A stretch of 64,000 nucleotides of DNA from Cyanobacteriota bacterium (GCA_046045965.1 JBJOKS010000001.1:64001-128000); one strand, 5' to 3'; positions 10,339 to 44,723 are shown, numbered from the stretch's first letter. Program-made: numbers and translations. The notes: generated from the sequence alone by a model not told the origin.

Positions 10339-10349
10339 CAATTTCTAAT

Positions 10350-12283: not shown

Positions 12284-12444
12284 AAGACAAACCTAAGATA
12301 ACTATAATTAAGAAAAGATTCAGTGAGGTAGAATTTGGGAAGTATTGGGAATTGGGAATTGGGAAATAATACCCAATCCCCATATATTCTTGAATCTTGT
12401 TTGTAGGTGGGGGAAACCCCAACCCTACATACTGACTGAAGAAA

Positions 12445-27150: not shown

Positions 27151-27259
27151 TAGTTATTAGTTTTTTAGTTATTACTTATTGAGTTTTGGTAACGGGTAAT
27201 TGGTAATAGGTAATTTGTAGAAACCTCTTCCCAGTCACCAATACCCAATCCCCAGTCAC

Positions 27260-27598
27260 CTAAACTATTGCTTGTTGTTTTTTCAATTGTTCCGCTAACT
27301 TTTGGGAATAAGTGTTATACCAGCGTTCCCAATAATCTTGTTTATTGGTTAATTTGGCGATGACGCGGTTGTATGTGGCAAACCAATTTTCCCAATAATC
27401 ACTGGGTTGTTTTACGCAACCACTAGCAGTAGGACAAACTGCTTTACATTGAGGTACTGTGTAAATACTATCAGCACAGTTTGTACAAAGTTCAGAGTCG
27501 ATCAGGTGTTTACCTTCAACTTCTTGAATTGCACCATTAGGACATACAGACACACACAGGTTACAGGAAATACACTGGCTAGTAATTGTGTAAGCCAT
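27260..27598 (-). CDS. fdxN: 4Fe-4S ferredoxin FdxN (uninterrupted)
   Basis: CxxCxxCxxxCP motifs; between nifB and nifS. Confidence 0.92.
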   Translation of the reverse strand: MAYTITSQCISCNLCVSVCPNGAIQEVEGKHLIDSELCTNCADSIYTVPQCKAVCPTASGCVKQPSDYWENWFATYNRVIAKLTNKQDYWERWYNTYSQKLAEQLKKQQAIV

Positions 27599-27713
27599 GA
27601 CTATTCTCCTTGAGGGGCATTGGGCTGTAGTAATGGGTGAATAGAGAAGGCAAAAGTGAGAAGTGAAAAGAACAGAATTCTTTTGACTTTTGACTTTTGA
27701 CTTCCTATATTTA

Positions 27714-29147
27714 TTACTGATTAGCCTTTACATACTGCTCGTAAAACTCTAAGGCAACTTTCTCGATTACGTCGTAAGATTCAACAGTCTGTATGCCGGC
27801 TGCGTGCAGTTTCTCTTTAGGACAATTACCTATTTTGGAAACTAAAACTGCTTTACAATCTGCAATTGATTTCATTATATTGTCTGCGGTCGCTTCTTCA
27901 CCGTATCCACCTTGACAATATTGATCAATTTTGCGATGACTGACAAATTTTACTTCATTACCATCCACTTCGTAGACTTGAAATTCTTTAGCATGACCGA
28001 AGTGTTGGTTAACTAATCCACCACCTTTGGTTGCAACTGCAATCAGGATTTTAGGACTATTAGCAACTGTCTTGCCAGCTTGTACCTTGGATTTTGCTAG
28101 TTGAATTTCTTCTCTAAATTTCTCAATTCCTTCATGAACTTCTTGGCGTGTTTCCAGGTTGTATTCTGGAGACATTTCCATGAATTTATCTTTAGTGAAT
28201 TCTTGGCTGCGGTCTTCTCCTAATAATCCTACCGCATCTGCTCGACACTGGCGACAGTGGCGCATCATTTTCATGTTACCAGAACAGTTATCTTGAACTT
28301 CTTTAAGTTCTTTACCTGTTGGTCCACGTTGACCAGTTAAACCAAAGTGTGTACCATGTTCTGGTGCAGAAATTAGCGGCATGATGTTGTGCAGGAATGC
28401 ACCTCTTTCACGAATTGCCTTGTTAACTTCTACCAAATGTTTGTCATTAATTCCGGGAATCATCACAGAATTAACTTTGCATAAGATATCAGCTTCTTTC
28501 AAAGCTTGCAATCCTTCCAACTGCTTTTCTAGGAGAATTTTCGCCCCTTCAATTCCTCTGTAACGCTTGCGTTTATAGTGAACCCAAGAATAGATTTGTG
28601 CGCCTATTTCTGGGTCAATGGTGTTAAGGGTGATAGTAACGTGATCTATATTTAATTGTTTGATGCGATCAACATATTCTGTTAACATCAAACCGTTAGT
28701 AGATAAGCACAGTTTAATATCTGGTGCTTTATCTGCAATCAACTCAAAAGTACGGAATGTTTTTTCTGGATTTGCTAAAGGATCACCAGGTCCAGCAATT
28801 CCCAAAACTGTCATTTGGGGAATTTTACCTGCTATCACCAATACTTTATGTGCAGCTTCTTCTGGTGTGAGTAATTCGCTTACTACTCCAGGACGGCTTT
28901 CATTTGCACAGTCATACTTGCGGTTACAATAGTTGCATTGAATGTTGCAAGCTGGGGCAACTGCAACGTGCATCCGGGCATAATGATGGTGAGCTTCTTC
29001 GCTATAACAGGGATGGTTGGCGATGCGTGCTTTGAGTTTTTCGTCCATTTCTGGGGTTGTGCTGCTATCGCAACCGCAACCACCAGATTTACCTTTGAGG
29101 GGTTCCTGTTCGGAGGAGGTGAGGAGTCCTGTAGCCGGTAGTGTCAT
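27714..29147 (-). CDS. nifB: Radical SAM FeMo-co protein NifB
   Basis: [13 protein letters not shown] and C-terminal NifX-like domain. Confidence 0.97.
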
Positions 29148-29589
29148 TGAATTTCGCAAGGGTTCGGTGGACTAGATGGCCACTGTGGGAGATGCCGTTG
29201 CTACTTCCAATGCCTATGAACTGAAAGTCACGTCTGATACTCACTTTGCCCGCATGAGTATGATACAAATTTTGGATGATTTTAGTGTTATTTGAGATGA
29301 TGGCAACAGTCTATTAATTAAGACTTTGAATCCAAAATCTAAAATCTAAAATCCAAAATTTCTGCAAGGTTCGGCTGGTGTGTGTCAACTGTGGGTCTTG
29401 GGTAGACTAAGTTTGTACAGCCGCGACTTCCATTCACTTCAGGCATGGTGCTATCTCATCCCTCCACTCACTTTTAACTTCTAACTTTGTTAAGGAGCGT
29501 TAAGTGATTGGCGATAAATGATTTATAGCAGCACTTTCTAGATGGGTAAATGGTTGTATGAAGATAGGATTTATTGGATTTATTATGTA

Positions 29590-29797
29590 TGTACTCAAAT
29601 CTATAAATCCCAATCTTTGTCAGGATTACAAAAATTAAATAATATTTTTTCGGGTAGGGGTGCTAGTATTTTTCGATTGGGGTACGAGTATTTATGATGT
29701 GGGGTTCAGGATTTCGTTGTACTCATTCAAAACCCAATACCTGTCAGGGATTGGGTGATATTTGGGTTGATTTTGCGTTACATTCATCATGTACTCA
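29590..29797 (-). promoter_or_regulatory. nifB upstream region with three TGAGTACA motifs (putative CnfR sites)
   Basis: TGTACTCA at 29590, 29718 and 29790, plus a box shared with the nifP upstream region. Confidence 0.7.
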
Positions 29798-30241
29798 ATT
29801 AACCCTCAAATCCTGCTAAAAGCTTTAATTTGCAAGGGATTGGAGGTGGAAAACTGGAGTAGGATAAGCCTTGCTAATCCAGTAACGTGCGAAATTCTAT
29901 TCTGTATACAACATATCATTTTTTTTTAGATAAAAATGCAGTTTATATTCTTTTAACTTTTCGCTAGTCAATGATGTTAATTGCATTTCTAAAATGATGC
30001 TGGTTCAACATTAGGGCTTTAATAAAAGCATAACTCTTAATGCAGATAATTTGCAAGTAATCTCATCTTTATTAGGGCAGGAAATAGGCAAGAAGGAATA
30101 GGGAATCAGGAATAGAGAACAGGGAATGAGAAATAATGTCAAATTAGGGAATAGGGAATAGGGAAAGAAATTAATCGCCCTGAACTTTTAGCAATCGCTA
30201 CACTTGAATTATGGTGAACAAGTCAAAGGAGGGGAAAGTCC

Positions 30242-31204
30242 ATGAAAGCTGTTGTTATCCGTCGCTATGGTGATGCTGAGGTGTTGCAGTATGAAGAGGT
30301 GGAACAACCGAAAATCAAACCAGACCAGTTACTTGTCAAGGTTCACGCTAGTAGTGTTAACCCCATTGACTGGAAAACCCGCAAGGGAATGCTGAGTATT
30401 TTAACTGGAAACAACTTTCCCCTCATTCTCGGTTTTGATGTCGCTGGGGAAGTGGTGGAAGTTGGTTCACAGGTAACGCGCTTTAAAGTTGGAGATGCTA
30501 TTTATGGCAGTACCAGCTTTCCTGGGGGCGCTTATGCAGAGTTCGCCGCTATCCCAGAAAATTTGGCGGCTCCCAAACCAAATAATTTGACTTATGAAGA
30601 AGCAGCCACTGTCCCTTTAGCGGCGCTAACGGCTCTCCAGGCGTTGCGAGACTTGGGAAATATCAAATCAGGTCAAAAGGTATTAATTAACGGTGCTTCG
30701 GGCGGTGTGGGCATTTTTGCGGTGCAAATTGCTAAGGCGTTGGATGCCGAAGTGACTGGTGTTTGCAGTACCAAAAATTTGGATTTGGTGAGGTCTTTGA
30801 ATGCAGATTTAGTTATTGACTATACGCAACAGGATTTTACAAAAGGTAATGTGCAGTACGATATTATTTTGGATGCAGTTGCTAAACGAGCATTTTCTAA
30901 TTGCAGAAAAGTTTTAAAGCCAAATGGAGTTTATATTTCGACTCTCCCCACACCGGAGGTAATTATACAGGGTGTTTTAACAGCGTTTCTTCCTGGTCAA
31001 AAGGCAAAAATTGTCTGGGAAAAGCCGAATAGTAAGGATTTGGTTTATTTAAAAGAGTTGATTGAAAATGGTAAACTGCGGACTGTGAGCGATCGCACCT
31101 ATCCTTTACAAGAATTAGCAGCAGCTCATCAGTATAGTGAGGGTGAAAGGACAGTAGGGAAAATTGCGATCGCTATCAATGTGCCAGTGCTTCAGACTGC
31201 ATAA
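30242..31204 (+). CDS. NAD(P)-dependent MDR-family (quinone oxidoreductase-like) oxidoreductase
   Basis: VNPIDWK, GFDVAGEV and INGASGGVG. Confidence 0.9.
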   Translation: MKAVVIRRYGDAEVLQYEEVEQPKIKPDQLLVKVHASSVNPIDWKTRKGMLSILTGNNFPLILGFDVAGEVVEVGSQVTRFKVGDAIYGSTSFPGGAYAEFAAIPENLAAPKPNNLTYEEAATVPLAALTALQALRDLGNIKSGQKVLINGASGGVGIFAVQIAKALDAEVTGVCSTKNLDLVRSLNADLVIDYTQQDFTKGNVQYDIILDAVAKRAFSNCRKVLKPNGVYISTLPTPEVIIQGVLTAFLPGQKAKIVWEKPNSKDLVYLKELIENGKLRTVSDRTYPLQELAAAHQYSEGERTVGKIAIAINVPVLQTA

Positions 31205-31232
31205 ATCGTGTAAATAAACAGATTCTTAATAT

Positions 31233-31266
31233 CTGACGCACCCTACCAATGTGCTAGTTGCGTCAG
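31233..31266. terminator. Inverted repeat between convergent genes
   Basis: CTGACGCA...TGCGTCAG; the left arm ATCTGACGCACCCTA also occurs at 21946. Confidence 0.45.
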
Positions 31267-31281
31267 TCCCGATCCTCTGCG

Positions 31282-33237
31282 CTAAAACAGTCGTTCTCCT
31301 GAAGAGTTGTCATTTCCTTGAGGCCATAGCGGCGGCTTTTTAGTAGGGGTAGGTTGTGTACGAACTCTACTCCTTGAAGGCTGTTTTCTCTGTGGTGGTT
31401 GCGTCTGAGGTGCAATCCTCTGTCTAGGTTTTGGTGTACGTTTAGGTAAATTGCTAGTTGATTTTTGATTGACTGTTAAATTAACATTATTTCGTTTAGG
31501 TGTTGGCGAAGATGGTACTGGCTTAGGTATAACTGGAACTACTTTTCTTTCAGCAATTATTTTCTGAATTTTCTGATCAATTTCTTGAATTTTACTGTTG
31601 TATTTTGCTTTGATTTGGTTTACTTTCTCAATTACAAAAGCATCATTAGGAATTTCTGCTAGTTTTACTCTTAACTTTTCCCACTCAGATTTTACTCGCT
31701 GTAAATCTTGAATATTTTTAGCACTTTTAGCTGTTTCAGTCCAATTAGTAAGAGTTTGAGCAGATGCCTCTATTGAAGCTATTTGTGTTTCATAAATTTC
31801 TTCTTTTGCCAACTTATCATCTATAGCTTTAATCTGTGTTTCATATTCTTGTTTTAAAGTTGTTACCTGGGGCTGAATTTTAGCATTATCGGGAATTTTA
31901 TCAAGCTCAGTCAGTGTATTTTGTAATTGAGCGCGGGCATTTTGGAGTTGGTTAATATTCTGAGCTTGTTCGGCTAAAGTCTTGCTTTCTTTACCTTTTT
32001 TCTCTACTTCGTTATAGAGATTGGTGTACTCGGTACAGTTACCTTGAGAACGACATAAAAAACTAATATTAGCAGACTGCCAAATTACTAAACCTGCAAT
32101 TCCTCCAGTAACCAGTATAGTTGCTAAGACACTGATTATCAATTTCCAGTTACGTCTTTGATTATTTGAATTGTTTTTTTCTTCATTTTTTTCTATCTGT
32201 GTAATTTCTTGATGGTTTAGAGGTACTTCTTCTGGTGTGAACTCAGTCAATAATTGAAAATTAGCTACTACTTCTAAATTCCTGTCAATTTTCAATGTAA
32301 CAGTATGATCAGATCCATTTACTGCACCACTCCAGTGAGTAAACCGCCAATTTTGTTTTGCTATTGCTTTTACAGTCACTTGTTCATCTAATTCGTACAA
32401 ACCATCACCTTCAATTTCGCCGCTTCCTGACGGTTTTGCTGTGACGGTTAAAGTATATTTCGGAATCAGCGGAGAACCAATATTTTTAGTTGTTTTTTGC
32501 TCTACTGGTGATTCTGGATCTAGTTTTTCTAGTTCTGCTTCCAGGCGATCGCCTATCTCCCGTATTCTGAAGTTGCGCTTATTTGGGTTTGGATCAGTTA
32601 CTTGAAGATACCAATCTGTAGCTGTTAATTTTGGCTGCAAATCAGCAATAATTTTGGCAAAAGCATAAATATCAGATGCCTTTGTTAAATTATCTGTTCC
32701 TACTTCTGGTGCAAGATAATTTTTGTATTCTTTTTTCAAACTCTTTATAACGGATTGATTTCGCGAATTAATCAATGGTGCATAGCCAAAACCCCTTAAA
32801 TATACTTTGTTTTCTACCACTACAAAACTAGACGGATTGAGGTTGCCATGTATTTCTTGTTGATGCAAAATATGAATGATTTCGGTAGCCTGTTTCCATA
32901 ATTCTTTTGCATTTTCTGGTTGCTGATCTAAAAATTCTGCTAGGGTTTTGGTTTTTTCAGACCAAGTTGAATAAACTGAAACTATGGGAGAATTTAGCTC
33001 CTTACGAGTAGTTTCTGGGACAACAAAGCCAGACTTATTTTTAAAATCATTCAAAGATGCAAAGTGTTCAAATAATAAGTTTGCTTCTGCTTCCGATACT
33101 TGAGTTTGTAAAACTTGTAAAATTACAGTCTTGTTGTCCTTAGTAGCCCTAAACCATTTATAAATAGAATCCTCACTAATGCTTGCTACTAGTTCATATC
33201 CACAAATTGATTGTTTTTCTTCCATTTGATTAACCAT
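31282..33237 (-). CDS. Membrane pseudokinase: degenerate Ser/Thr kinase domain, InlB-B-like repeat, TM helix, coiled coil, Pro/Lys/Arg tail
   Basis: HGNLNPSS for HRDLKPEN, GFG for DFG, YLAPE and SDIYAF retained; YTLTV...F..WSG...VVANF repeat; TM LIISVLATILVTGGIAGLVIW. Confidence 0.75.
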   Translation of the reverse strand: MVNQMEEKQSICGYELVASISEDSIYKWFRATKDNKTVILQVLQTQVSEAEANLLFEHFASLNDFKNKSGFVVPETTRKELNSPIVSVYSTWSEKTKTLAEFLDQQPENAKELWKQATEIIHILHQQEIHGNLNPSSFVVVENKVYLRGFGYAPLINSRNQSVIKSLKKEYKNYLAPEVGTDNLTKASDIYAFAKIIADLQPKLTATDWYLQVTDPNPNKRNFRIREIGDRLEAELEKLDPESPVEQKTTKNIGSPLIPKYTLTVTAKPSGSGEIEGDGLYELDEQVTVKAIAKQNWRFTHWSGAVNGSDHTVTLKIDRNLEVVANFQLLTEFTPEEVPLNHQEITQIEKNEEKNNSNNQRRNWKLIISVLATILVTGGIAGLVIWQSANISFLCRSQGNCTEYTNLYNEVEKKGKESKTLAEQAQNINQLQNARAQLQNTLTELDKIPDNAKIQPQVTTLKQEYETQIKAIDDKLAKEEIYETQIASIEASAQTLTNWTETAKSAKNIQDLQRVKSEWEKLRVKLAEIPNDAFVIEKVNQIKAKYNSKIQEIDQKIQKIIAERKVVPVIPKPVPSSPTPKRNNVNLTVNQKSTSNLPKRTPKPRQRIAPQTQPPQRKQPSRSRVRTQPTPTKKPPLWPQGNDNSSGERLF

Positions 33238-33319
33238 AAATTTTGCTTTTAGTAAATTGACAACATTTCTCTTATTTAATCATGTTTATGCTTACTTTTG
33301 GCAGTTGAGCAATTAAGTT

Positions 33320-34804
33320 CTAGGAAAAATGAAATCCATCGTTTCTCTTAAATCCTTCACTTTCTAAAGTAACAGATACTCTTTGTTCTTCGCTCACTTT
33401 GAAAGTAACTTTAATGTCTCCTCCTTGAAGATGCTCAGGTAATTCGGTAATATTAATAGTTCCTACTAAGGAGTTATCTTTAACTAGTTTGGATGACCCT
33501 TGATAGACGTTGATATCTAAAGCATCTACATTATTGCTAATAGTAAATATTTGACTTCCTTCGCAGGGGGTTTTCCGATTTGCGGCAATTAACGGATGGA
33601 ATTTACCACCGATTATTTCAATACCTAAAGCATGGCAAGTACGCCTAAAGATTTTCACTTCTCGCCCGAAAACTTCTCTGTCATCAAGATAGGCTGCATA
33701 GATCGCTGCTCCCTCGGCTACACAGAGGGACAAATTACTATTAGCATAAATCTTTTGATCACCGAAAATATCACTCAATAAAGCTCTCATGCAGGGAATA
33801 TTACTGGAACTGCCAGCTAAAATTACGCGATCTACAGCTGATGAATTTAAATTAGTATCATCCCAAATTTTTTCAATTATGCCCTTGATTTTATTAACGT
33901 AAGGCTGAAGCAAATTTTCAAGTTCTGAACGAGTTACAATGGTATCTGTTGGCTGTCCAGGAATTGCTTCAAATATGACATCAGCTATTTGTGCGGCGCT
34001 GAGGGTATGTTTCGCTTCTATCGCTACTTCTGTAAGTTTGTGTTGAGCTTTGCGTAATGATTTTTCATCTAAGTTAGATAAATTTAACTTACCTTTATTG
34101 ATGAATAATTTTACTAGTTCTTGATCAAAGTCCATTCCTCCTAGTCGATCATCTCCACCTGTTCCTAACACTTCAAAAAGTAGATTATCTGGTGTTTGTT
34201 CTAGTCGAAATAGAGTTAAATCAAAAGTACCACCTCCTAAATCAAATACCAAAATATTTTCTGCATGGGTTCTGTCTGGATAGTCTTGAACCAACTGCCA
34301 AGTATATGCAAGAGAGGCAGCAATGGGTTCTTGTAAGATGTCGGAAAAGTTAATATCAGCTAATAAGGCTGCCTGGCGGGTATTTTCACATTGATGGGCT
34401 TTAAAATAGTAAGGTACAGTTACAACTGTGCCACGACTTTGGAGTTTACCTGCATATTGCTTATCTTTGATATCACTGTATAGATACTGGAGAATTTTGG
34501 CTGATATTTCAATTGGGGAAAATTCTTGTCCTCCTAGTACAATTCTTTGTGTAGCATCATCCATCAAACGTTTAACACCTTGAATCATATTTTCTGGAAA
34601 TGTAAAACCTTTGCGATATGCAGTGACTCCTACTAAAGATTCTTTTTTTGTTGGATCATTGTAAAATACTGATTGCAGAGTAGAACCAGCAGGGCTAAAT
34701 ATTTGATAAGCTCTTGGTCCTCTACCATCCCAACGAGCGATCGCACTAAATGTTGTTCCTAAGTCAATACCTAAAACGGGATTCAATTGATGATCAACAG
34801 GCAT
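33320..34804 (-). CDS. Hsp70-family protein C (494 aa, no lid)
   Basis: GIDLGTT, TVPYYF, FDLGGGTFD and GGMDFD; LAGSSSNIP replaces LVGGSTRIP. Confidence 0.88.
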   Translation of the reverse strand: MPVDHQLNPVLGIDLGTTFSAIARWDGRGPRAYQIFSPAGSTLQSVFYNDPTKKESLVGVTAYRKGFTFPENMIQGVKRLMDDATQRIVLGGQEFSPIEISAKILQYLYSDIKDKQYAGKLQSRGTVVTVPYYFKAHQCENTRQAALLADINFSDILQEPIAASLAYTWQLVQDYPDRTHAENILVFDLGGGTFDLTLFRLEQTPDNLLFEVLGTGGDDRLGGMDFDQELVKLFINKGKLNLSNLDEKSLRKAQHKLTEVAIEAKHTLSAAQIADVIFEAIPGQPTDTIVTRSELENLLQPYVNKIKGIIEKIWDDTNLNSSAVDRVILAGSSSNIPCMRALLSDIFGDQKIYANSNLSLCVAEGAAIYAAYLDDREVFGREVKIFRRTCHALGIEIIGGKFHPLIAANRKTPCEGSQIFTISNNVDALDINVYQGSSKLVKDNSLVGTINITELPEHLQGGDIKVTFKVSEEQRVSVTLESEGFKRNDGFHFS

Positions 34805-34840
34805 AGTATCAAACCACTAATTTACTAATTTACTAATTAA

Positions 34841-35968
34841 CTAATTTTTCACAACGATGACTTCAGCACAGCGCAAAACTATTCGACTATCTGACGCTAA
34901 TTCATATTCATATCCGGCTCTACTAACTTCTTTGATGTCTTCAGTTGTTAATGTTTCATCTGGTTCAATATCTATAGGTTCATGTCGGTCATAATCAATT
35001 GGATTTCCTTTTTCAACTTGCATTCTATAAACACCAAATTTGTTTAATAAAGATAGAATCTTTTCCTGTAATTGAGCGTAGGTATCAAACCATAGTTGTA
35101 AATTCTCTGCTTGTTCTGGCTCTGCTTGTTCTGGAACTTCTTTTTCCATTGACTGAATTAGTGGCTCTGAAAATTGTTTACCACTATCTAAGGCATCTAT
35201 AATTGGTAGCATTTTTTTCTCAAGAAATTGCAGGAAACGTTTGCGTCTATTTTGGGCTGTTTCCCGCATTTTTCCCACTAAATGCCAGCGTTCATTTCCG
35301 CGTAGTTTCAATTGAGAGTCTAAAACTTTTTTGGCTGATGCTTCATCTACTTCCTGAACAATTAATTGACTCAACTCCTGTTCTGTAATTATCAAATGAT
35401 CTATAGATTCTCTGACTACGGTTTCTGTAATTTCTTGTGCTTGTTCTCGCAAGCGTTCTACCATTCTGCCAATAATTTCTAACCCTTCATTTCTACCTTG
35501 AATTTTTGCTTGTAATTCCTGTGGTAGAGATAATTTTAATTCTTGACTATTCGTTAATATGGCTTTGGTATCCTCAAGAAATAATGGCAACTCGTTGAAA
35601 ATTTCTTGTCCTTTCTGTTGCCATTGACAAGCTTGCTCGTAGTATTGTTCTAATTCTTGAATATCCGATTCCTGACTTTCTTTTTCCTGTTGCCAAGCTA
35701 AAGTAACTAATGCTGATAAGTCTTTAATCTTGGGAATATTATGCAGTGGCTGTTCTGTATTTGTTTCTAAATTAGCTGGTTCAGTGTTTGGTTGTTCACT
35801 GTTTTCTAACAAATTTTCTAATCCTGTTGATGTCTCTGTTGAATTAGGATCATTAGATCCAACCTCAATTGGATTATCTGGGTTTTGTTGATCTTGATCA
35901 GTTGCTAGAGTATCGTTATCCTGTGCAGAAGAATTCGATTGGATAGGGTTTGCAGAATTGTTTGTCAT
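34841..35968 (-). CDS. Extended GrpE-like nucleotide exchange factor
   Basis: MLPIIDALD and C-terminal GNPIDYDRHEP...EVSRAGY...VLRCAEVIV match the GrpE beta domain. Confidence 0.75.
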   Translation of the reverse strand: MTNNSANPIQSNSSAQDNDTLATDQDQQNPDNPIEVGSNDPNSTETSTGLENLLENSEQPNTEPANLETNTEQPLHNIPKIKDLSALVTLAWQQEKESQESDIQELEQYYEQACQWQQKGQEIFNELPLFLEDTKAILTNSQELKLSLPQELQAKIQGRNEGLEIIGRMVERLREQAQEITETVVRESIDHLIITEQELSQLIVQEVDEASAKKVLDSQLKLRGNERWHLVGKMRETAQNRRKRFLQFLEKKMLPIIDALDSGKQFSEPLIQSMEKEVPEQAEPEQAENLQLWFDTYAQLQEKILSLLNKFGVYRMQVEKGNPIDYDRHEPIDIEPDETLTTEDIKEVSRAGYEYELASDSRIVLRCAEVIVVKN

Positions 35969-35996
35969 TTTATTATTGTTTTTATCACTAATTTGC

Positions 35997-37610
35997 TTAC
36001 GCGCGAGTTATTTCTAATTCATCAGCAGAACTTGAACTAACCGCCTGAACTTTCAGTAAGTTTTGTTGATCGATAGCAAAGGTAACTGTAATCTTTTCTT
36101 GTCCTTTGGATTTCGGGGGAATTTTAGTTAAGAAAAACTCACCAATACACTTGACTCCTTGATCATTGACGTATTCTACAAGTTCTGTTGACTGATAGAT
36201 ACGAATGACTAACTCTGTCATATTATCGCGGGAAGTAGTATAGTCTTTCTTTTCAATCAGAGGCTGATCTGTGGGAATTTCTAAATCTTTTTTTAGTAAA
36301 CAACTAAATTTACCACCTGCTATTTCAATACCTAAGAAATGTGTAACAATGTTGTTGATGGTGACTGTGCCTTTAAATTGGTCTTCAGGATTAACATTTT
36401 CTGTTTCTGGAATTTTGTCTGATGGTACTCCTAAATTAGCTCCAAAAATTGCTGCTCCTCTGGCTACTGCTGTATCTGGATCTGTGTCGGCATACGGCTC
36501 TTTACCAAACATTTCTGTGAGCATGGTTCTCACTAATGGAACTCGACTAGAACCACCAATCATGATGATCCGATCAATATCACCAATTTCTAATTTGGCA
36601 CTAGCTAAAGCTTGTTGTAATGCTTGTTTTGATTGCAAAATTAAATCTTTAATAGCAGTGTTGAAATCTTCACGAGTAATTTCTAATTCCAAGTTATACA
36701 TATTGCCTGATTCATCTGCAATCAAATTAGGCAGATCAATTTTTGCTGTTTGAGCTTCGCTCAGTTCCCATTTAGCTTTTTCTGCTTCCTCTTTTAATTT
36801 CTGTTGAGCGTTACGAATTTTATTGGGGCTAATTCCTTGATCTTTTTTGTCGTCTAAAAGATTAATGCCAGAAGTTTCTAGCAGTTTGGCGGCGGCAATT
36901 TTCATAATTTCATAGTCGAAATCGTCTCCACCTAATTGAGAGATTCCTGCTTTAGCAAGAATTTCAAAACAACTGGTTGATTCAAGGGAGGAATTGAGTT
37001 TAAGTATACAGACATCGAAAGTTCCACCACCAATGTCGTAGACTAAAATTGTCTGATTTCGTTGTTTTTCCATGCCATAGGCGATGGCTGCGGCTACGGG
37101 TTCTTCTAATAGGTAAAGTACCTCTAAATTCGCCAGTTCACTGGCTTTGATAGTGGCTGTTTTCTGTGCATCGTTAAAGTTGGCAGGAATGCAAATCACC
37201 GCATAGCGGGGTGTACCCCTGAGCTTATCAACATCTTGGGCAGCTTCCGCAGTTAACTTTGACAAAATTTCCGCGGAAATATCGACTGGTGTATATTTTT
37301 TTCCAGGGGATGCGGGAAACTCTTTTGTCCATTCCGTTCCCATCTCCCTTTTGATTGATTTCACCAGATTATCTGGATCGATAAGTAAGCGTTTACGCGC
37401 TTTCTTTCCCACTACCATTTCCCCAGCTTCTTGATCTTTAGGGATGTAAACCACAGAGGGACACATTTTTTCCCCTTCTATGGGTAGGATTTCAGCTACA
37501 CCTTTTCTAAAGATAGCGATCGCTGAGTTAGATGTACCTAAATCAATACCTAAAATATAAGGACTGTTTTTCGGTGCTATTGTCATAGATTTAAACAAGT
37601 CAATGGTCAA
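35997..37610 (-). CDS. Hsp70-family protein B (537 aa, no lid)
   Basis: GIDLGTSNS, YDIGGGTFD, GGDDFD and IGGSSRVP. Confidence 0.9.
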   Translation of the reverse strand: MTIDLFKSMTIAPKNSPYILGIDLGTSNSAIAIFRKGVAEILPIEGEKMCPSVVYIPKDQEAGEMVVGKKARKRLLIDPDNLVKSIKREMGTEWTKEFPASPGKKYTPVDISAEILSKLTAEAAQDVDKLRGTPRYAVICIPANFNDAQKTATIKASELANLEVLYLLEEPVAAAIAYGMEKQRNQTILVYDIGGGTFDVCILKLNSSLESTSCFEILAKAGISQLGGDDFDYEIMKIAAAKLLETSGINLLDDKKDQGISPNKIRNAQQKLKEEAEKAKWELSEAQTAKIDLPNLIADESGNMYNLELEITREDFNTAIKDLILQSKQALQQALASAKLEIGDIDRIIMIGGSSRVPLVRTMLTEMFGKEPYADTDPDTAVARGAAIFGANLGVPSDKIPETENVNPEDQFKGTVTINNIVTHFLGIEIAGGKFSCLLKKDLEIPTDQPLIEKKDYTTSRDNMTELVIRIYQSTELVEYVNDQGVKCIGEFFLTKIPPKSKGQEKITVTFAIDQQNLLKVQAVSSSSADELEITRA

Positions 37611-37660
37611 ATAATTAGTCGTTAAATAAATCGAAAGCTATCTCGACTCTTGATTTATGG

Positions 37661-39193
37661 TTAAATGTTAGTATCAATAGTCACGGTTTTTGCATTAATC
37701 CTCCCAGTATTAATCAACTGATTTACCAGTGTTATGTGCAAAGCACCACCATTTTCGGCTGCATACTCTAAAATAGGTGTGATCACTTCACTTCTTGGTA
37801 ATTCCACCATCGTAAACTTGAGGATGCCATCAGCGTCTAAATTAAAGATCACTCCCAAAGGTACTTCTTCAGACTGAGGTGTAATTGGGAGAATTAGCTG
37901 CCCCAGTTGAGTATTTTTCTGGGGATCAGGATGTTCACCGCGAAAGACGCTAACACGTACTCGTTCTTGCCAAGGGCGAGATGTAGTAGCAAATCTGCCA
38001 TATTGGCAGGGATAGGGAGTTTGGCGAGGAATAACGGCTACAAATACTAGTTCTTCTTCACCATTGTTTTCCTGAAGCATATCTACGCCATAAGTGTGCG
38101 GTGTGACATCTGTCACTTCCACAGGCAAATTATCTACTATGCTTGCTGCCACAATTGCTGCCCCATGTGCCACAACTTCATCTACTCGGTCTGCGGTAAA
38201 GGGGTCTTTAATTTCCTGGGAAACAATTTCTCTAACTGCGCGGTTTCTGGTTGAACCTCCAACTAAAATTACGCGATCAATATCCCCTGCACTCATCCCC
38301 GCATCTCGCAGTGCATCGCGCATACACTGGATAGTTTTTTGCAGCAAGGGTTCTATCAGTTTGTTGTATTGAGATAATGATAATTCCAGTTCTAAAGGAT
38401 GACCCAAACAATCAGAGATTTCGATCAAGGCGGTTTCTGCTTGGGAAAGTTCTATTTTGGCTACTTCTGCGGCTTCTTTCAATCTCTGTCGAGCAATTTT
38501 TCCCTTGCGGCTAGAGTTATTGAGCAAATCAATCCCGGTTTTTGCTTGAAATTGGCTACTTGCCCAAAACATAATGGCTTCATCGAAGTCATCTCCACCT
38601 AAGCAACTGTCTCCACCTACTGCTTTGACTTTAAACTCATTTTGTTGGACTGTGAGGATGGAAACGTCAAATGTGCCGCCACCTAAGTCATAGACCATGA
38701 GAGTTTGGTCTTTACCTTTATCAAAACCGTAAGCGATCGCAGCTGCTGTTGGTTCAGGAATCAGTTTAAGAACATTCAAACCAGCTTTCTCCCCTGCTCT
38801 TTTCGTATCTTCCTTTTGAGCTTCTGTGAAGTAAGCAGGAACTGTAATTACTACATCTCGGATCGGCTGTCCTAGTTCTTTTTCCGCACATTCCACTAGA
38901 CGTTTTAGTATCATACTACCGATGTCCAATGGGGTCAGAGTCTTACCACCTACACGGTAAATTTGACTGCGATCGCCCATAAACCTCTTCGCTGAAGCAA
39001 CGGAATTCTCAGGATCTATTAATAACTTCGCTTTTGCAGATTGTCCCACCAACATACTTCCATCGTTACGGAAGGATACCACAGAAGGTAGAGTCGGACG
39101 ACCATCAATTAATAATGTTTCTACTACTCCTCTACGAAATACAGATATGACGGAATTAGTAGTTCCCAAATCAATACCGACAGCGTAAGCCAT
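37661..39193 (-). CDS. Hsp70-family protein A (510 aa, no canonical lid)
   Basis: GIDLGTTNS, TVPAYF, EPTAAA, YDLGGGTFD and LVGGSTR; AAGGA RBS. Confidence 0.92.
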   Translation of the reverse strand: MAYAVGIDLGTTNSVISVFRRGVVETLLIDGRPTLPSVVSFRNDGSMLVGQSAKAKLLIDPENSVASAKRFMGDRSQIYRVGGKTLTPLDIGSMILKRLVECAEKELGQPIRDVVITVPAYFTEAQKEDTKRAGEKAGLNVLKLIPEPTAAAIAYGFDKGKDQTLMVYDLGGGTFDVSILTVQQNEFKVKAVGGDSCLGGDDFDEAIMFWASSQFQAKTGIDLLNNSSRKGKIARQRLKEAAEVAKIELSQAETALIEISDCLGHPLELELSLSQYNKLIEPLLQKTIQCMRDALRDAGMSAGDIDRVILVGGSTRNRAVREIVSQEIKDPFTADRVDEVVAHGAAIVAASIVDNLPVEVTDVTPHTYGVDMLQENNGEEELVFVAVIPRQTPYPCQYGRFATTSRPWQERVRVSVFRGEHPDPQKNTQLGQLILPITPQSEEVPLGVIFNLDADGILKFTMVELPRSEVITPILEYAAENGGALHITLVNQLINTGRINAKTVTIDTNI

Positions 39194-39452
39194 AATTTTT
39201 CCTTATTTAATATTTAAATGTGCGTTGCTTAATTCCAGATTAATTGTCTTGTCATACCGCCCCTATCCCATAACAAAGATACGATCATGATATAGCTAAT
39301 GTTTGAGTTAATATCTATACCCACATGAAAATTTAAATGTTTTAGCTGCTTATTTAAATTTATTATAAAGTAGTTATATTTTACAAGTAATTTTGGGTAC
39401 ATTTAAGATTAAACTCGTAAAGTACACAGTATAGAACTAACAGTGGTTAGCT

Positions 39453-40013
39453 ATGAAAAACCAGCTACTGAATACGATTCTGACAGGAACAGCTATTACA
39501 TTAGCCTCTAGTTTACTGTCAAGCACTCCCGCTCAAGCTCAAGCAACGGCTTTTGTTTGTGGACAAAGCAACAATGTTCCAGCAACAATGGCTCAAACAG
39601 CAAGAGGTAATGTCCCCGTGATCCGTTGGAATTCTGACTATTTCGCAGCTGCTGGATATGATCCACAAACACGCTGTGAAATGGTATCACAAAGATTCCA
39701 AACTTTCCTCCAAAAGAAGGCTTTGAACTATATCACCACTGGACTCATCAATGGACAAAAAGTTGTCTGTGTTGCTCGTTTTCAAGGAGGTGACTGCGCT
39801 CGTGACCTTCCAGAAGCAGGATTATTATTCACACTCAAACCAGAAAGCAATCCCGGCCAAACTCTACGACAGTTAATGCAAGTAAGAGTAGGTGCATCTG
39901 GACCATTGAATGAAAATGATGCCCGTGTTTATATCAACGTCAATGATTTTCTGAATACATCACCAGTAGAGGAAAACACTATGAATCCACCGGTTGAAAA
40001 AAGCCTCTTTTAA
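39453..40013 (+). CDS. COP23-domain secreted protein
   Basis: Signal peptide; FVC...VPAT...VIRW.S.YF...GYDPQTRC..VSQRFQ...VVCVA...LLFTLKP. Confidence 0.85.
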   Translation: MKNQLLNTILTGTAITLASSLLSSTPAQAQATAFVCGQSNNVPATMAQTARGNVPVIRWNSDYFAAAGYDPQTRCEMVSQRFQTFLQKKALNYITTGLINGQKVVCVARFQGGDCARDLPEAGLLFTLKPESNPGQTLRQLMQVRVGASGPLNENDARVYINVNDFLNTSPVEENTMNPPVEKSLF

Positions 40014-40941
40014 CTTCTTATTAATCTGTTCAACCATGCTAAAGAAGCTAGAACTTTTGATGAATAATCTTGAAGTTACCAAAGGAAAAGGTATGCTTTG
40101 GCTGACAATTACCTTGCTTATTTCTACTGCTGGATTATTCATAGGAGAGGCAGAACAGATCAAAACTCTAGCTTCTGCTGATTTAAATACTATTCAAACT
40201 GATTTTTCTGACAACACAGAGGTATTGACAAAAGAAATAATCCAGCAGTCTAATTTATCAAATACCATACCTGAATCCTTGGCAATAATCGCCAAATCAA
40301 TTACCGTCAAAGTCTTAGCTGGTGAGGGTTCTGGTTCAGGAATTTTAATTCAACGACAAGGAGATATTTATACTGTTCTGACTAATGATCATGTATTAAG
40401 CTTAGGTAATAAGTATCAGATCCAAACACCAGATGGAAAAATATATGCGGCTTCTCGTTATTCAGTAGAGTTGGAAAACAATGATTTAGGATTAATCCGT
40501 TTCCAAAGCAGCAACAAATCTTACAGTATTGCCTCTTTAGATAGTGGCAAAGACTTAATGGTTGGGGATCAGCTGTTTGCTGCTGGGTTTCCCATAGATA
40601 TCAAGGTTTTTGCTAATCAACAAGGCGATTATATGATCTCTCATCCAGAGGGGTTTGTACTTACTTATGGACGGGTATCATTAGTCAATGACAAAATTTT
40701 AGCAGGAGGGTATCAGCTAGGTTATACTAATGACATTCAAAAAGGAATGAGCGGCGGTCCTGTACTTAATTATCAGGGACAGGTAGTAGCAATCAACGGA
40801 ATGCACGCTTATCCTCTCTGGGGAGATCCTTATGTATATAAAGATGGTTCAAAACCTTGTACATTTATGCGAGATTTCATGATCCACTATAGTTGGGGCA
40901 TTCCTATGGAAACATTTATCAAAATAGCGCCCAAACTTTAA
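39994..40941 (+). CDS. Trypsin-like serine protease without PDZ (start uncertain, probably 40036-40093)
   Basis: GSG, LTNDHV, DLGLIRF and GMSGGP catalytic triad motifs. Confidence 0.88.
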   Translation: MKKASFNFLLICSTMLKKLELLMNNLEVTKGKGMLWLTITLLISTAGLFIGEAEQIKTLASADLNTIQTDFSDNTEVLTKEIIQQSNLSNTIPESLAIIAKSITVKVLAGEGSGSGILIQRQGDIYTVLTNDHVLSLGNKYQIQTPDGKIYAASRYSVELENNDLGLIRFQSSNKSYSIASLDSGKDLMVGDQLFAAGFPIDIKVFANQQGDYMISHPEGFVLTYGRVSLVNDKILAGGYQLGYTNDIQKGMSGGPVLNYQGQVVAINGMHAYPLWGDPYVYKDGSKPCTFMRDFMIHYSWGIPMETFIKIAPKL

Positions 40942-41003
40942 CTATTGCAATTATCGTTATCCATTATTTTGGCAAAAAAATTTATCAGTTAATGGAGATT
41001 TAG

Positions 41004-41639
41004 TTGATGAAAAGATTGAACAAACTAACATCCATATTCATCGGTACAGTAATGGTTCTAGCATTTTCCTCCGCAGGGTCAGCATCATCACAAGAAGCCA
41101 ATACTATTAATCAGGATGCTATTAAATTTGAAGGTTCTGACTACTTAACAGTAATTCAAGCCAGAATATTGATAGCCCAAGGACAGGCACTCTTGAATAT
41201 GGGCAGATACAGAGAAGCACTAGCAACATCTGATCGAGTCTTAGCAATTAAACCTACTGATTATCAGGCTTGGGAAATCAGAGGTAATGCTCTGAATAAA
41301 TTAGGTAGAGACAGGGAAGCTGTGACTGCTTATGAGCAAGCTTTGAAATTATTACAACAACCACAACAGAAATCTGTTCCAGGCAATAATACAGCCAAAG
41401 TAGAAAAACAATCAGAAATGTACCTGGGATTAATGCTGGATGATATTTGTAATCAAAACCAGAAATCCTATCCAATTCAGGGAAATAGATTGTCACAAAC
41501 TGAATCTGAATCTGTGAGTTTACCTGTATTTCCGAATATTAACTCAGGTTCAATCATCCCCAATTCAGAACCACAACTTAACATTCAGCCTTCCCCTATC
41601 ATCCCGCTAACTGAACCATTAAGACCTGCGCTTTGGTAA
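41004..41639 (+). CDS. Secreted TPR protein
   Basis: Signal peptide, two TPR units, Pro-rich tail. Confidence 0.8.
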   Translation: MMKRLNKLTSIFIGTVMVLAFSSAGSASSQEANTINQDAIKFEGSDYLTVIQARILIAQGQALLNMGRYREALATSDRVLAIKPTDYQAWEIRGNALNKLGRDREAVTAYEQALKLLQQPQQKSVPGNNTAKVEKQSEMYLGLMLDDICNQNQKSYPIQGNRLSQTESESVSLPVFPNINSGSIIPNSEPQLNIQPSPIIPLTEPLRPALW

Positions 41640-41695
41640 AATTGATAGGAATTATTTGAATATTAAATACATACATTTTGGTTGAACAAAAACTT

Positions 41696-42595
41696 ATGAA
41701 TCTGAAAAAACGAATTCCAAAAATAGTGAGTAGTGCAGGATTAGTAAGTACAATTTTCTTGATGATGCCAAAAATTGTAGTTGCACTACCCGGTAGTGAA
41801 GTCAGCAAAATTGCTGAACAGATTACGGTTCTTATTGATGGACAGAACCCTGGTTCTGGAGTAATTATTGGCAGAAAAGAAAAGTCTTATTACGTACTCA
41901 CTGCTAAACACGTGGTAGAAACACAGGATGAATACACAGTGCAAACATCAGATGGAAGCCGATATCAATTAAACTACAGCACTGTCAAAAAATTACCTAA
42001 TGTAGATTTAGCTGTTCTCCAATTTACAAGTAATAAAAATTATAACGTTGCCAAATTAGCTGATTCCGACCAAGTGGGTGTAGGTGTAAGTGTTTATATT
42101 GCTGGGTTTCCTAACCCTGGAAGAGAAATCACTCAGCGAATTTATCAGTTCACAAATGGAGAAGTATCAGGAAGACCAAAACCTGCTCTTAGAGATGGAT
42201 ATGCAATTGTTTATACTAATGTGACTAGAGCCGGCATGAGTGGTGGACCAGTATTAGATGCCAATGGTCGTGTCGTCGGTATTCATGGACGTGCTGAAAG
42301 TGAATCAGTTCCTACCAACGAATCAGGAACATCTGTTTCCAAACTTGGCTTTAATTTGGGAATCCCCATTAATACTTTTTTGAACTTAGCAAATAAAGTA
42401 GGAGTGAATCTAGGAGTACAAGCTGAAAAATCGCCCGTTGTTACTCAAACAAAGCCTCCCACTACTGTTTCCAGTCCTGTGTCAGAACCAAGTTCCACTC
42501 CTTCCTTTTCTCCGGGGACAATTCCACGACGACCGACACCCATACGTCCTACAAATCTACCACAAGCACCGGTTTGTGCTGGTAGTAAGTGTTAA
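41696..42595 (+). CDS. Secreted trypsin-like serine protease without PDZ
   Basis: LTAKHV, DLAVLQF and GMSGGP; Pro/Thr tail ending CAGSKC. Confidence 0.9.
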   Translation: MNLKKRIPKIVSSAGLVSTIFLMMPKIVVALPGSEVSKIAEQITVLIDGQNPGSGVIIGRKEKSYYVLTAKHVVETQDEYTVQTSDGSRYQLNYSTVKKLPNVDLAVLQFTSNKNYNVAKLADSDQVGVGVSVYIAGFPNPGREITQRIYQFTNGEVSGRPKPALRDGYAIVYTNVTRAGMSGGPVLDANGRVVGIHGRAESESVPTNESGTSVSKLGFNLGIPINTFLNLANKVGVNLGVQAEKSPVVTQTKPPTTVSSPVSEPSSTPSFSPGTIPRRPTPIRPTNLPQAPVCAGSKC

Positions 42596-42640
42596 TGCAA
42601 ATATGGTTTTTGAGTGAAATATACATAATCAAAACGAGGT

Positions 42641-43891
42641 ATGAAAATAATGCTAAAACAAATTTGTCAATCTAGCTTTTTAGCTCTGGCTTTAGTTCCA
42701 TTATTACTTAACTTCAATGCAGAAATCGCTGATGCCGCACCTGCAATTTATGAAGATGAACTCACAACTACCCGCGGGCTAAGATGGGGCGCTCCAGGAT
42801 TACCTTATAACGAAGCTGCTGATATTAAAGACAGTCTGGTAGATACAGTATTAGGAAAAGTTGTACCAGATCGTCATGGTATTGGTGCTAGTAGTTTAGG
42901 ACTTTTTGGTCCATTTCAAGGTCCACAATATGGCAGATTGGTATTTGTTTCCTTGTGGGGGAGTAAGATTGAAGGATGTTTTGTAGAAATGATTATTCAA
43001 TATTCTCCTAGTGATGGCCAAGCTAATGCCAATGAGATAGTTCCTAAATTGTTAGAAGTGGGAATTGGTTCACAGGCGATCGCATTACCTCCACAAGCAA
43101 ATACACAAAAAAGTTTCAGCCAAGGTTATTCTTACGAGATTGAAAGAGAGAAAAGGAAATATATCGTCAATAGCACTTGGTACATGACGCGTAATACATT
43201 TGCGCTCGATTCTAATATTGCGAGCATTCTCAGCAATGCACCAGTAAAACAGACTCGCGCTCGTCTAACCCTTGCTAATGGTGAGACGATGATTATCCCT
43301 ATAGGAGAAGGGACAGTCAAAAAGTGGAAGGAAGCATATAGTTTTAATCCCTATTGTACTAATTTAAATCAACCCCAACCTCAACAGCCGTCCACAACTC
43401 CACCGGTAAGTACACCATCAAAATTACCCTCTAAACCAGCTGCAAAACCGTCGCAGAGGTCTTCTAATCCTCAAAAAATGGCTGGTGGAAAAAAACCACC
43501 TGCTACTCAGTCACCTGCTCCTACACAACGCACAGTGGGAAATGTGGCTTTAGCAGCGACACAAACTTTAGATAATGTGTTGATTCAACTAGATGGAGCG
43601 AATGTAGATTCTTTAGGTAACTTCACTGCTAATTTGATTATTGAAAATCGCAGTCCTTATTTATTTGGCTTTGTGCCAGTATTTGCTAGAGTATATGATG
43701 CTAATGGACAAAGGGTATCTGCACGGATTTCTTTTAATCCTGGAGAAGATGCAACTATCGCACCTGGAGTTATACAAAAAGGCAAATTATCGATATTTGG
43801 ACAAAAGTGGCAAGAAACTGGCTCTCAAAATTTAATTTTGGAAATTCGGGAAAATTCAACTAGGGGTAGACTTTTTCGAGTTCCATTTTAA
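42641..43891 (+). CDS. Secreted two-domain hypothetical protein with Pro-rich linker
   Basis: Signal peptide (ADA-A), GAGGT RBS, beta-rich Ig-like C-terminal domain. Confidence 0.78.
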   Translation: MKIMLKQICQSSFLALALVPLLLNFNAEIADAAPAIYEDELTTTRGLRWGAPGLPYNEAADIKDSLVDTVLGKVVPDRHGIGASSLGLFGPFQGPQYGRLVFVSLWGSKIEGCFVEMIIQYSPSDGQANANEIVPKLLEVGIGSQAIALPPQANTQKSFSQGYSYEIEREKRKYIVNSTWYMTRNTFALDSNIASILSNAPVKQTRARLTLANGETMIIPIGEGTVKKWKEAYSFNPYCTNLNQPQPQQPSTTPPVSTPSKLPSKPAAKPSQRSSNPQKMAGGKKPPATQSPAPTQRTVGNVALAATQTLDNVLIQLDGANVDSLGNFTANLIIENRSPYLFGFVPVFARVYDANGQRVSARISFNPGEDATIAPGVIQKGKLSIFGQKWQETGSQNLILEIRENSTRGRLFRVPF

Positions 43892-44162
43892 AACTAAGTA
43901 GAGGCAGATATTAGAGCTTGTTGAGAATTTTCATCTTAATTCTTAATTTAAAAGCAAGGTTTTTGGTATCTAAAAAACAACTAGAATAAAAGTCAAAGGC
44001 GAGTTGATTTTCATAATCAGCTTCAAGACCAAAGGTAAAGTCAAGACGTAATCCCAGGTTTTGAGGATTTAAAGAAATACCAACTAAATCAGCACTTTTT
44101 AAATCTTCAAGAAAATATGATATCATAATATCATTGTTAATGGATTGAAAAATTGAAAAGAT

Positions 44163-44381: not shown

Positions 44382-44424
44382 ATGTTAATATATAAATAGT
44401 CTAGTTAAACCTTAGTTAAACACC

Positions 44425-44712: not shown

Positions 44713-44723
44713 AGATTAATAAC

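Follow-up and report, generated by a model that had tools for sequence, protein, structure and literature searches.

Three lid-less Hsp70 paralogs, a long GrpE-like protein, and a pseudokinase encoded in a patchily distributed gene module with linked trypsin-like peptidases

We analyzed a stretch of 64,000 nucleotides (nt), called the window here, from the Cyanobacteriota bacterium assembly GCA_046045965.1 (JBJOKS010000001.1:64001-128000, which is C1:64001-128000 of genome G000 in our numbering). The subject is a gene module in this window that encodes three Hsp70 paralogs without the helical lid, together with a GrpE-like protein and a pseudokinase. Five co-oriented open reading frames (ORFs) occupy positions 31282-39193 of the minus strand. 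Read in the direction of transcription, they encode HspA (37661-39193; 510 amino acids (aa), with a short C-terminal extension), HspB (35997-37610; 537 aa, with a TTG start), a long GrpE-like protein (34841-35968; 375 aa, recognized by a Pfam GrpE match and by its predicted fold), HspC (33320-34804; 494 aa, the most divergent of the lid-less Hsp70s), and the pseudokinase PsK (31282-33237; 651 aa), a membrane protein that has the fold of a kinase but not its catalytic residues. The gaps between the genes are 50, 28, 36, and 82 nt, so a first-pass annotation of this DNA had been correct in describing five co-oriented genes with gaps of 28-82 nt. It had also reported no J-domain gene in the window, and this agrees with a search of the whole genome with PF00226, in which none of the 11 matches falls inside the window. 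A J-protein encoded elsewhere in the genome may serve the module in trans. The genome has four full-length dnaK genes besides HspA, HspB, and HspC.

The three proteins match the Pfam HSP70 profile (PF00012) with E-values of 1e-117 (HspA), 7.6e-106 (HspB), and 1.1e-76 (HspC), covering profile positions 1-484, 1-495, and 1-484, respectively. Because these matches stop at 484-495 of 599 positions, the lid is missing from all three. The alignment to E. coli DnaK gives the same picture: HspB and HspC end just after beta-8, the last strand of the beta-sandwich, and HspA is about 45 residues longer; the helical lid, the alpha part of the substrate-binding domain (SBD-alpha), is present in none of them, and SBD-beta is retained in all paralogs. 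They are 29-36% identical to one another and 29-42% identical to the full-length DnaKs of the same genome. Their best NCBIfam scores, 407.5, 367.8, and 256.2 bits, are to be compared with 648-1019 bits for the DnaK equivalog cut-offs, and they fall below every NCBIfam cut-off for DnaK or HscA. The earlier description of the three Hsp70s as lid-less and clearly divergent is thus borne out.

A phylogeny had been proposed as a check on this description. In a maximum-likelihood (ML) tree of 31 Hsp70s, A, B, C, DnaK, and A' (a fourth module Hsp70, described below) form separate clades with supports of 98-100; those of A, B, and C, at 100/100, 100/99, and 100/100, lie outside DnaK, with a stem of 1.56 for C. 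The branching order is similar inside the A, B, and C clades. Orthologs of these Hsp70s in other phyla-level lineages have the same end points and are mostly 52-71% identical to the window proteins; for HspA, the identity is 59-63% in most other loci and 54% in locus L040. The HspB and HspC sequences of Snowella and of Pseudanabaenaceae (L006 versus L007 and L008) differ very little, with end branches of 0.013-0.025, although the hosts have been placed in different families. Either the genes were transferred recently or one of the assemblies was binned wrongly.

These data bear on the simplest explanation of the operon, that A, B, and C are recent, decaying dnaK duplicates with lost 3' ends. 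The proteins are shorter than DnaK and below all of the NCBIfam DnaK cut-offs, as such duplicates would be. However, all of the frames are open, the catalytic residues are conserved, and the identities (29-36% mutual, 29-42% to the genome's own DnaKs, and 52-71% to orthologs elsewhere with the same ends) are against it. Recent decay is excluded by the separate supported clades, the conserved residues, and the orthologs elsewhere, and we assign this explanation a negligible probability.

Asp-8, Lys-70, Glu-171, Asp-194, Thr-199, and Asp-201, which we take to be the catalytic and phosphate-binding residues in the E. coli DnaK numbering, are all kept in HspA, HspB, HspC, and their orthologs. This conservation, together with the tree, suggests that the A, B, and C Hsp70s are ancient, functional-looking, and, as far as residues can tell, ATPase-competent. 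Other parts of the nucleotide-binding domain (NBD) and its surroundings differ from DnaK. The segment corresponding to DnaK 76-101 is missing from all paralogs, and the position of Arg-167, which contacts the J-protein, is basic (Lys) only in HspA; the B proteins have Tyr, Ser, or His there, and the C proteins Asp or Gly. In the alignment, HspB is the only one of the three in which the exposed IIB loop is complete and the two salt-bridge pairs that span the nucleotide cleft are both kept, features whose residue-level details follow in part the general DnaK literature. HspC has lost the upper salt bridge and kept the catalytic residues. In the accessible text of a review, the IIB loop and the charge pairs of the cleft are tied to slow nucleotide release and to GrpE dependence. 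The interdomain linkers are degenerate, VEVTD, VTINN, and VKIFR in the three window proteins, compared with DVLLLD given for DnaK in the available part of a 2026 review.

Two variants of HspC were seen. At about residues 327-334 of the window protein (positions 33807-33832), the adenosine-binding motif reads ILAGSSS, where all 17 orthologs have V-G-G-S-S, a change private to this copy. At the HspC position of locus L035 (1910-3652), an HspC-type NBD (Pfam HSP70 positions 1-376) is fused to a GUN4-like domain and has no beta-sandwich.

The long GrpE-like protein scores 34.2 bits with PF01025, for which the curated cut-off is 25.8. In a sequence search, profiles of its family did not match the solved GrpE structures. 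A model built from 60 relatives has a predicted local distance difference test score (pLDDT) of 85.7 overall and of about 98 across residues 85-375, and the top seven Foldseek matches of this model are GrpE structures (E. coli GrpE and human GrpEL1), with template-modeling scores (TM-scores) by target of 0.48-0.58. Residues 1-77 are predicted to be disordered, residues 85-181 form an extra helical hairpin that packs in the model against the long GrpE helix, and the remainder consists of this long helix, a bundle of small helices, and a beta domain at the C-terminus. The GrpE-like protein, as modeled, has a GrpE fold. The family is small: a word-based search gave 15 proteins among 5.8 billion clusters, and a profile search of 1.84 billion proteins yielded 298 representatives, of which 108 had E ≤ 1e-30.

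PsK was recognized by its predicted structure; the window copy has no Pfam kinase match, although some of its orthologs, which are 29-41% identical to it, do. A model of residues 1-340 made with 13 orthologs (pLDDT 84.9) shows a Hanks-kinase fold followed by an InlB B-repeat sandwich, and its best structural matches, at E of about 1e-10, are Stk1/PknB of S. aureus and PknB/PknI of M. tuberculosis. The domains are a pseudokinase at about 10-240, the B-repeat beta-sandwich at 260-330, and one transmembrane helix at about 367-385, followed by a predicted periplasmic part that contains a pair of Cys residues, a coiled coil, and a tail rich in Pro, Lys, and Arg. The Lys of the VAIK motif is replaced by Gln, the Asp of HRD by Asn, the Asn of the catalytic loop by Ser, and DFG by GFG, and for this reason we call the protein a pseudokinase. 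The catalytic Asp is missing in 15 of 16 module-linked kinase-like proteins, in which the position varies among N, Q, R, F, G, C, and L, while the Gln at the VAIK Lys and the surrounding motifs are conserved. The sole exception is a second kinase, fused to an FGE-sulfatase domain and present in its contig in addition to PsK.

Two subtypes of PsK can be distinguished. The membrane subtype, to which the window copy belongs, has one B-repeat, a transmembrane helix, a conserved Cys pair, variable outside parts, and Pro-rich PPLW tails. The soluble subtype has 2-4 B-repeats and a tail with 2-4 [LIVP]GxAF motifs. PsK had earlier been read as a transmembrane pseudokinase receptor; the window copy does have a membrane helix and is kinase-dead, but a membrane anchor is not general, since about half of the orthologous pseudokinases are soluble. 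Moreover, the modules of bacterium UASB270 and of L035 have no pseudokinase, so PsK is not universal in the module, and this counts against a mechanism that is centered on it.

Several further observations concern the PsK gene and its surroundings. The [LIVP]GxAF motifs of the soluble forms, two to four copies, were seen in loci among L003, L005, L006, L008, L009, L028, L030, and L032. Tails of the membrane forms carry PPLW(G) repeats, those of L025 and L027 ending in ...PLW; the tail of the window protein (31282-31400) has one PPLW and ends in ...ERLF. In L034 (4477-7642), an extra kinase-like gene with an HGD...N catalytic loop and an FGE-sulfatase fusion lies between HspC and PsK, where an IS200-type transposase gene is found as well. 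In three Pseudanabaena-type loci, a DUF29 gene lies between HspC and PsK (L005:12097-12555, L006:12541-13002, and L032:11492-11953); the window genome has more than 20 DUF29 copies by tblastn.

On the other side of HspA, a divergent intergenic region (39194-39452), presumably shared promoter space, separates the module from an operon of five genes on the plus strand. These encode a COP23-family protein (39453-40013; signal peptide, Pfam COP23 E-value 2e-41), the trypsin-like serine peptidase Tryp1 (39994-40941; N-terminal membrane anchor, His/Asp/Ser triad), a TPR protein (41004-41639; signal peptide, C-terminus ...PALW), a second trypsin-like serine peptidase, Tryp2 (41678-42595; N-terminal anchor, Pro-rich tail, triad present), and an exported protein of 416 aa (42641-43891). 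All five thus have a signal peptide or an N-terminal anchor. The catalytic triad is present in all 11 of the trypsin-like peptidases examined in window and related loci. The 416-aa protein has no family assignment: Pfam, NCBIfam, PADLOC, and PHROGs gave no match, and a search of the Atlas gave weak leads with feature scores of 0.77-0.81 and TM-scores by query below 0.5. The COP23, TPR, and 416-aa proteins each end in an aromatic residue (SLF, ALW, and VPF).

In this nitrogen-fixing cyanobacterium, the two operons lie together in an island of 12.8 kb (31171-43982) that is missing from a genome of the same genus, G107. By blastn and junction alignment, G107 has about 235 bp in its place, and the flanks, 26943-31170 and 43983 onward, align to G107 at 87-93%. 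The left junction is crossed by contigs of two unrelated DNA runs, so it is not an assembly artifact. The borders showed neither flanking direct repeats nor tRNA-like ends, and no integrase was seen there. The extent given in the first-pass annotation, 31282-39193, therefore describes only part of the unit; the five genes are there, but the island runs from about 31171 to 43982. The same annotation had taken HIP1 sites within the genes as a sign of long residence in cyanobacteria. The five positions, 32545, 34737, 37516, 38733, and 38969, are exact, and with 6 sites in 12.8 kb the island has the same density as the window on average (30 sites, with 0.15 expected by chance), which fits such a residence; however, the module is also found in non-cyanobacterial contigs.

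Near the island, a nifS-like aminotransferase gene, a ferredoxin gene, and nifB (radical SAM and FeMo-co domains) lie on the minus strand at 25933-29159, separated from it only by a zinc-type alcohol dehydrogenase gene (30242-31204). Beyond the right border, a further stretch of about 0.7 kb (44178-44895) is also missing from the same-genus genome. Two small ORFs lie in or beside this stretch, at 44425-44712 and 44724-44978, the first of which looks by eye like a ribbon-helix-helix antitoxin.

In a metatranscriptome from fresh water, both operons are covered by contigs whose sequence is that of the window. One RNA-library contig of 3.6 kb spans the HspA/HspB and HspB/GrpE junctions, and another spans the GrpE/HspC junction. 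In run X3, the contig depth is 4-8 in the flanks, 11-22 in the Hsp70 module, and 53 in the divergent operon; such depths cannot rank the genes, and the differences hint that the library holds more than plain DNA carry-over. A scan of 31000-44200 for consensus promoters and terminators was at the level of chance (39 found, 38.2 expected). One NtcA-type GTA-N8-TAC sequence is located at 39387, in the divergent intergenic region, and the window has 11 of these, compared with 10.97 expected by chance.

With the long GrpE-like gene as a marker, the module was found in six other genomes, namely, three assemblies of Pseudanabaena, Snowella, bacterium UASB270, and cyanobacterium G280. By tblastn, the gene order is (Trypsin_2)-HspA-(A'-vWA fusion, often)-HspB-GrpE-like-HspC-PsK. 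Fuller versions of the module contain one to three vWA genes and the fourth Hsp70, A', fused to a vWA domain. A scan of metagenomes gave 45 loci, 16 of which hold the module; the other 29 hold either ordinary pairs of a short GrpE with DnaK or another kind of Hsp70/GrpE cluster. HspC is the next gene after the GrpE-like gene in 14 of these 16 loci; in the remaining two, the contig breaks off within 400 nt of it. HspB is directly upstream of the GrpE-like gene in all eight loci with at least 500 nt of upstream sequence, and a Trypsin_2 gene is directly upstream of HspA in eight of the ten loci where that region exists. The trypsin-like peptidases are thus part of a larger unit.

The gene order is therefore conserved elsewhere, in six genomes and 16 metagenome contigs, and the distribution is patchy, in support of the first reading of the sequence. 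Counting the window genome in each case, the marker is present in 1 of 301 genomes of its family, which represent 68 genera, and in 2 of 301 genomes sampled across the phylum. Several of the module contigs are non-cyanobacterial by their HIP1 and G + C contents, and so is UASB270. Insertion sequence elements or toxin-antitoxin-like genes occur in L032, L034, and L035. The module is conserved, and it is mobile or often lost.

A different arrangement of Hsp70 and GrpE genes was noted in the window genome. In L011 (G000:C5:100000-118000), positions 3725-13067 encode a J-domain protein of 310 aa, an S26 signal peptidase, a GrpE of 169 aa, a 211-aa protein, a TPR protein of 817 aa, a LysM protein of 160 aa, and an Hsp70 of 738 aa. 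The same pairing is seen in the metagenome loci L050, L053, and L054, where an Hsp70 of about 735-759 aa (36-38% identical) lies a few kb from a short GrpE of 149-161 aa. L065 has an Hsp70 of this type, with a GrpE match that was seen only in the metagenome scan.

The modules differ in the compartment of their peptidases. Modules with soluble PsK contain a leaderless 195-aa peptidase and leaderless vWA proteins. In metagenome locus L025, three Trypsin or Trypsin-TPR genes with signal peptides are located 3' of PsK, and Tryp2 of the window is 39-43% identical to them. The PsK of L025 has the membrane-type layout, with the Cys pair, the coiled coil, and the PLW tail, and its hydrophobic segment scores lower. 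Hence the PsK tail and the peptidase would be in the same compartment in both kinds of module, cytoplasmic with the leaderless peptidases and periplasmic with the signal-peptide peptidases.

This comparison allows one to ask whether the module is a housekeeping one, in which the same machine would serve as private folding or assembly chaperones that keep the neighboring gene products soluble or export-competent, with no part in signaling or defense. The retention of SBD-beta in all paralogs and the intact ATPase residues would suit this role, as would the signal peptides or anchors of all five proteins of the divergent operon and the presence of both operons in one indel. There is also a precedent in Nostoc, where, according to the available text, a DnaK1-DnaJ3-GrpE system is dedicated to one cellular machine, although that system consists of a full-length DnaK with a J-protein. 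However, the fuller versions of the module, with leaderless peptidases, leaderless vWA proteins, and soluble PsK, are wholly cytoplasmic, so holding proteins for export cannot be the general role. Three or four co-inherited paralogs and a pseudokinase exceed the need for a private chaperone, and the gene set is extremely rare. We consider this explanation unlikely.

The hosts suggest another possibility, since most of those with names grow as filaments or colonies (Pseudanabaena, Snowella, UASB270, and a nif-bearing cyanobacterium). The Hsp70s might be structural, actin-like or scaffold ATPases for cell shape, septa, or filament integrity in such bacteria. Hsp70 shares the actin fold, there are weaker profile hits to MreB, FtsA, and ParM, and a paper in eLife (2020), in its accessible portion, suggests assemblies of tubulin and HSP70 in some systems. 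On the other hand, a peptide-binding beta-sandwich and a putative exchange factor with a GrpE fold point to a chaperone-type cycle, and the 300 other species genomes sampled from this filamentous family gave no match to the marker, which rules out a basic role in morphogenesis. This explanation is, in our opinion, quite improbable.

We found no description of this gene set in full-text searches of the literature, though the supplementary tables of comparative-genomics papers could list such neighborhoods; within these searches, the earlier remark that no characterized system with this layout is known was supported. The nearest described systems share some of its themes. Like the canonical DnaK-DnaJ-GrpE system, the module has NBDs with all of the catalytic residues, a peptide-binding beta-sandwich, an adjacent gene for a protein with a GrpE fold, and, in HspB, the IIB loop and salt bridges. 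It differs in having no lid, degenerate linkers, three or four co-inherited paralogs in clades outside DnaK and below the NCBIfam cut-offs, and no J-protein in the operon or window, and its GrpE differs from the canonical one in the disordered N-terminus and extra helical hairpin. Lid-less Hsp70 derivatives in bacteria are known from two sources, seen here in their available text. A 2025 preprint reports lid-less DnaK-like domains fused to protease-effector (EACC1-protease) modules, and DnaK derivates of Myxococcus are described in FEBS J 2026; both are lid-less and linked to proteases, like the Hsp70s of the module. As far as described there, these are single fused domains or scattered genes, in contrast to three paralogs joined in one operon with a pseudokinase and a putative exchange factor of their own.

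The GAP1-N2 GTPase-centric systems (Kaur et al., eLife 2020) resemble the module, in the portion of that paper available, in combining HSP70 and GrpE in a multi-gene accessory system with TPR, kinase, and vWA components and in their occurrence in hosts of multicellular habit. The MoxR-vWA ternary systems and TerY-P triads (vWA, PP2C, and kinase) resemble it in having an NTP-driven chaperone, peptide-binding vWA proteins, and a peptidase or kinase component; Hsp70-like units with TerY-P have been described in CoCoNuTs, as far as the accessible text shows. The module might therefore be a member of one of these described systems. In favor of this are the shared themes of HSP70 with GrpE, TPR, kinase, and vWA (same eLife paper, as accessible), and the window genome has a TerY-P-like cluster whose vWA proteins share 43-44% identity with those found in the fuller modules. 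That cluster, at positions 6346-14549 of L010 (G000:C17:24000-40000), consists of two vWA-TerF-like genes and genes for a CAP-domain protein, a VWA protein, a PP2C, a kinase with an HxD...N loop, and a 498-aa protein.

Nevertheless, the central components are different. In Pfam, the 105 distinct ORFs flanking the module in related loci gave no match to a DnaJ, GTPase, MoxR, or PP2C family, and neither these ORFs nor the 14 proteins of the window matched a GTPase, GAP1, FNIII, MoxR, or PP2C family. In place of the paired TRAFAC GTPases, GAP1, and FNIII proteins of the GAP1-N2 systems, there are three or four lid-less Hsp70s that bear an SBD, a pseudokinase instead of an active kinase, and trypsin-like peptidases; the theme in the consulted portion of the eLife paper involves a single full HSP70, in some cases accompanied by an NBD-only copy, and occurs chiefly in actinobacteria and firmicutes. 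Unlike in the MoxR-vWA and TerY-P systems, the ATPase is Hsp70 with GrpE and not MoxR, the kinase is catalytically dead, and the window copy is without any vWA. We regard membership in a described system as very improbable.

We favor a different explanation, which extends the first-pass reading of the locus as a dedicated, possibly hetero-oligomeric multi-Hsp70 machine with a putative role in signaling, conflict, or defense. The conserved order, the separate clades, and the patchiness agree with that reading, while the transmembrane receptor proved not to be general and the peptidases and vWA proteins have to be added to it. We propose that the module may act as a J-independent, ATP-driven switch, in which the Hsp70s would remodel a pseudokinase scaffold to control peptidases in stress or conflict. 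This proposal, built on sequence comparison, predicted structures, and gene context, is tentative, and we give it somewhat less than an even chance. HspB would be the GrpE-dependent motor, since of the three it alone has retained the IIB loop of DnaK together with both salt bridges. HspA and HspC would be specialized partners, possibly regulatory, in the way that Ssz1 or Hsp110 relate to Hsp70 in eukaryotes. In the ribosome-associated complex (RAC; Ssz1-Zuo1 with Ssb) and in Hsp70-Hsp110, divergent or truncated Hsp70 paralogs cooperate, some of them as regulators or exchange factors; the module shares no homology with these beyond the Hsp70 family, RAC, unlike it, needs a J-protein, and bacteria are not known to have a counterpart. 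PsK, with its B-repeat, would be a scaffold or sensor, and its tail may be a docking site for, or a substrate of, the linked peptidase, because the two would share a compartment. The output would be proteolysis by the trypsin-like peptidases. The proposal draws on the conserved gene order, the ancient paralogs with their ATPase residues, the lack of J-domain matches in the window and of DnaJ matches in the flanking ORFs, the loss of Arg-167 in B and C and the degenerate linkers, the GrpE fold, the dead kinase, the recurrent peptidase genes with their triads, and the RNA-library contigs as a hint of expression. In favor of an accessory, conflict-like context are the rarity of the marker and some of the neighboring genes, namely, EAD8, an nSTAND3 NTPase, and an SPFH protein in L027, and a TRADD-N-associated transmembrane protein, a NACHT/TPR protein, and transposases in L030. 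The literature points in the same direction without describing this layout: immune systems in which an Hsp70-like NTPase would be the switch have been suggested, and lid-less DnaK-like domains fused to protease-effector modules, HSP70 with GrpE in GAP1-N2 systems, and Hsp70-like units with TerY-P have been reported.

A number of results weigh against this proposed switch. Two features of the fuller versions, the vWA genes and the leaderless peptidase of 195 aa, are absent from the window copy, whose own peptidases are only about 30% identical to those of such modules. The match of tail and peptidase compartments involves two clades and is effectively one evolutionary change. The pairing of HspB with GrpE comes from the alignment, with residue roles taken in part from the general DnaK literature. 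The RNA-library contigs that span gene junctions may hold DNA and are no proof of a single transcript. As for conflict, the GrpE-like protein had no tblastn match at 1e-8 in plasmid or phage collections, and PADLOC 2.0 gave no system match and weak single-protein hits, to PDC-M61B (6.4e-7 and 1.6e-3) and PD-T4-6 (1.1e-5). The trypsin matches in PADLOC, to LmuA and RT-Protease, are generic, and only generic Hsp70, GrpE-like, and ParM-like families were found in PHROGs. Neighbors of conflict type are present in only 2 of about 20 loci, L027 and L030. The 188- and 192-aa proteins that flank the module in UASB270 look TerD-like by eye, an assignment that was rejected, as it had no support at E ≤ 0.01 in Pfam or in a sequence search of the PDB.

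A bolder form of the proposal, which we consider doubtful, is that the module represents a new class of conflict system. A hetero-oligomer of three or four lid-less Hsp70s with GrpE would then be the thresholding switch in place of a STAND or MoxR NTPase, the pseudokinase a decoy sensor, and the peptidases the effectors, in both cytoplasmic and envelope-spanning forms.

The role of lid-less bacterial DnaK derivatives is called an open question in the available part of the 2026 review. The module offers a compact and defined case in which to study it: three paralogs inherited together with a putative exchange factor of their own, a dead kinase, and peptidases, and no J-protein among them. The questions that it opens to direct testing are whether an Hsp70 can do without J-proteins, whether bacteria have Hsp70 hetero-complexes like RAC and Hsp110, and whether the Hsp70 cycle can be used as a signaling switch. 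If the module is truly a defense or stress system, it would add a chaperone-centered type to the NTPase-switch immunity that is built on STAND, MoxR, and GTPases.

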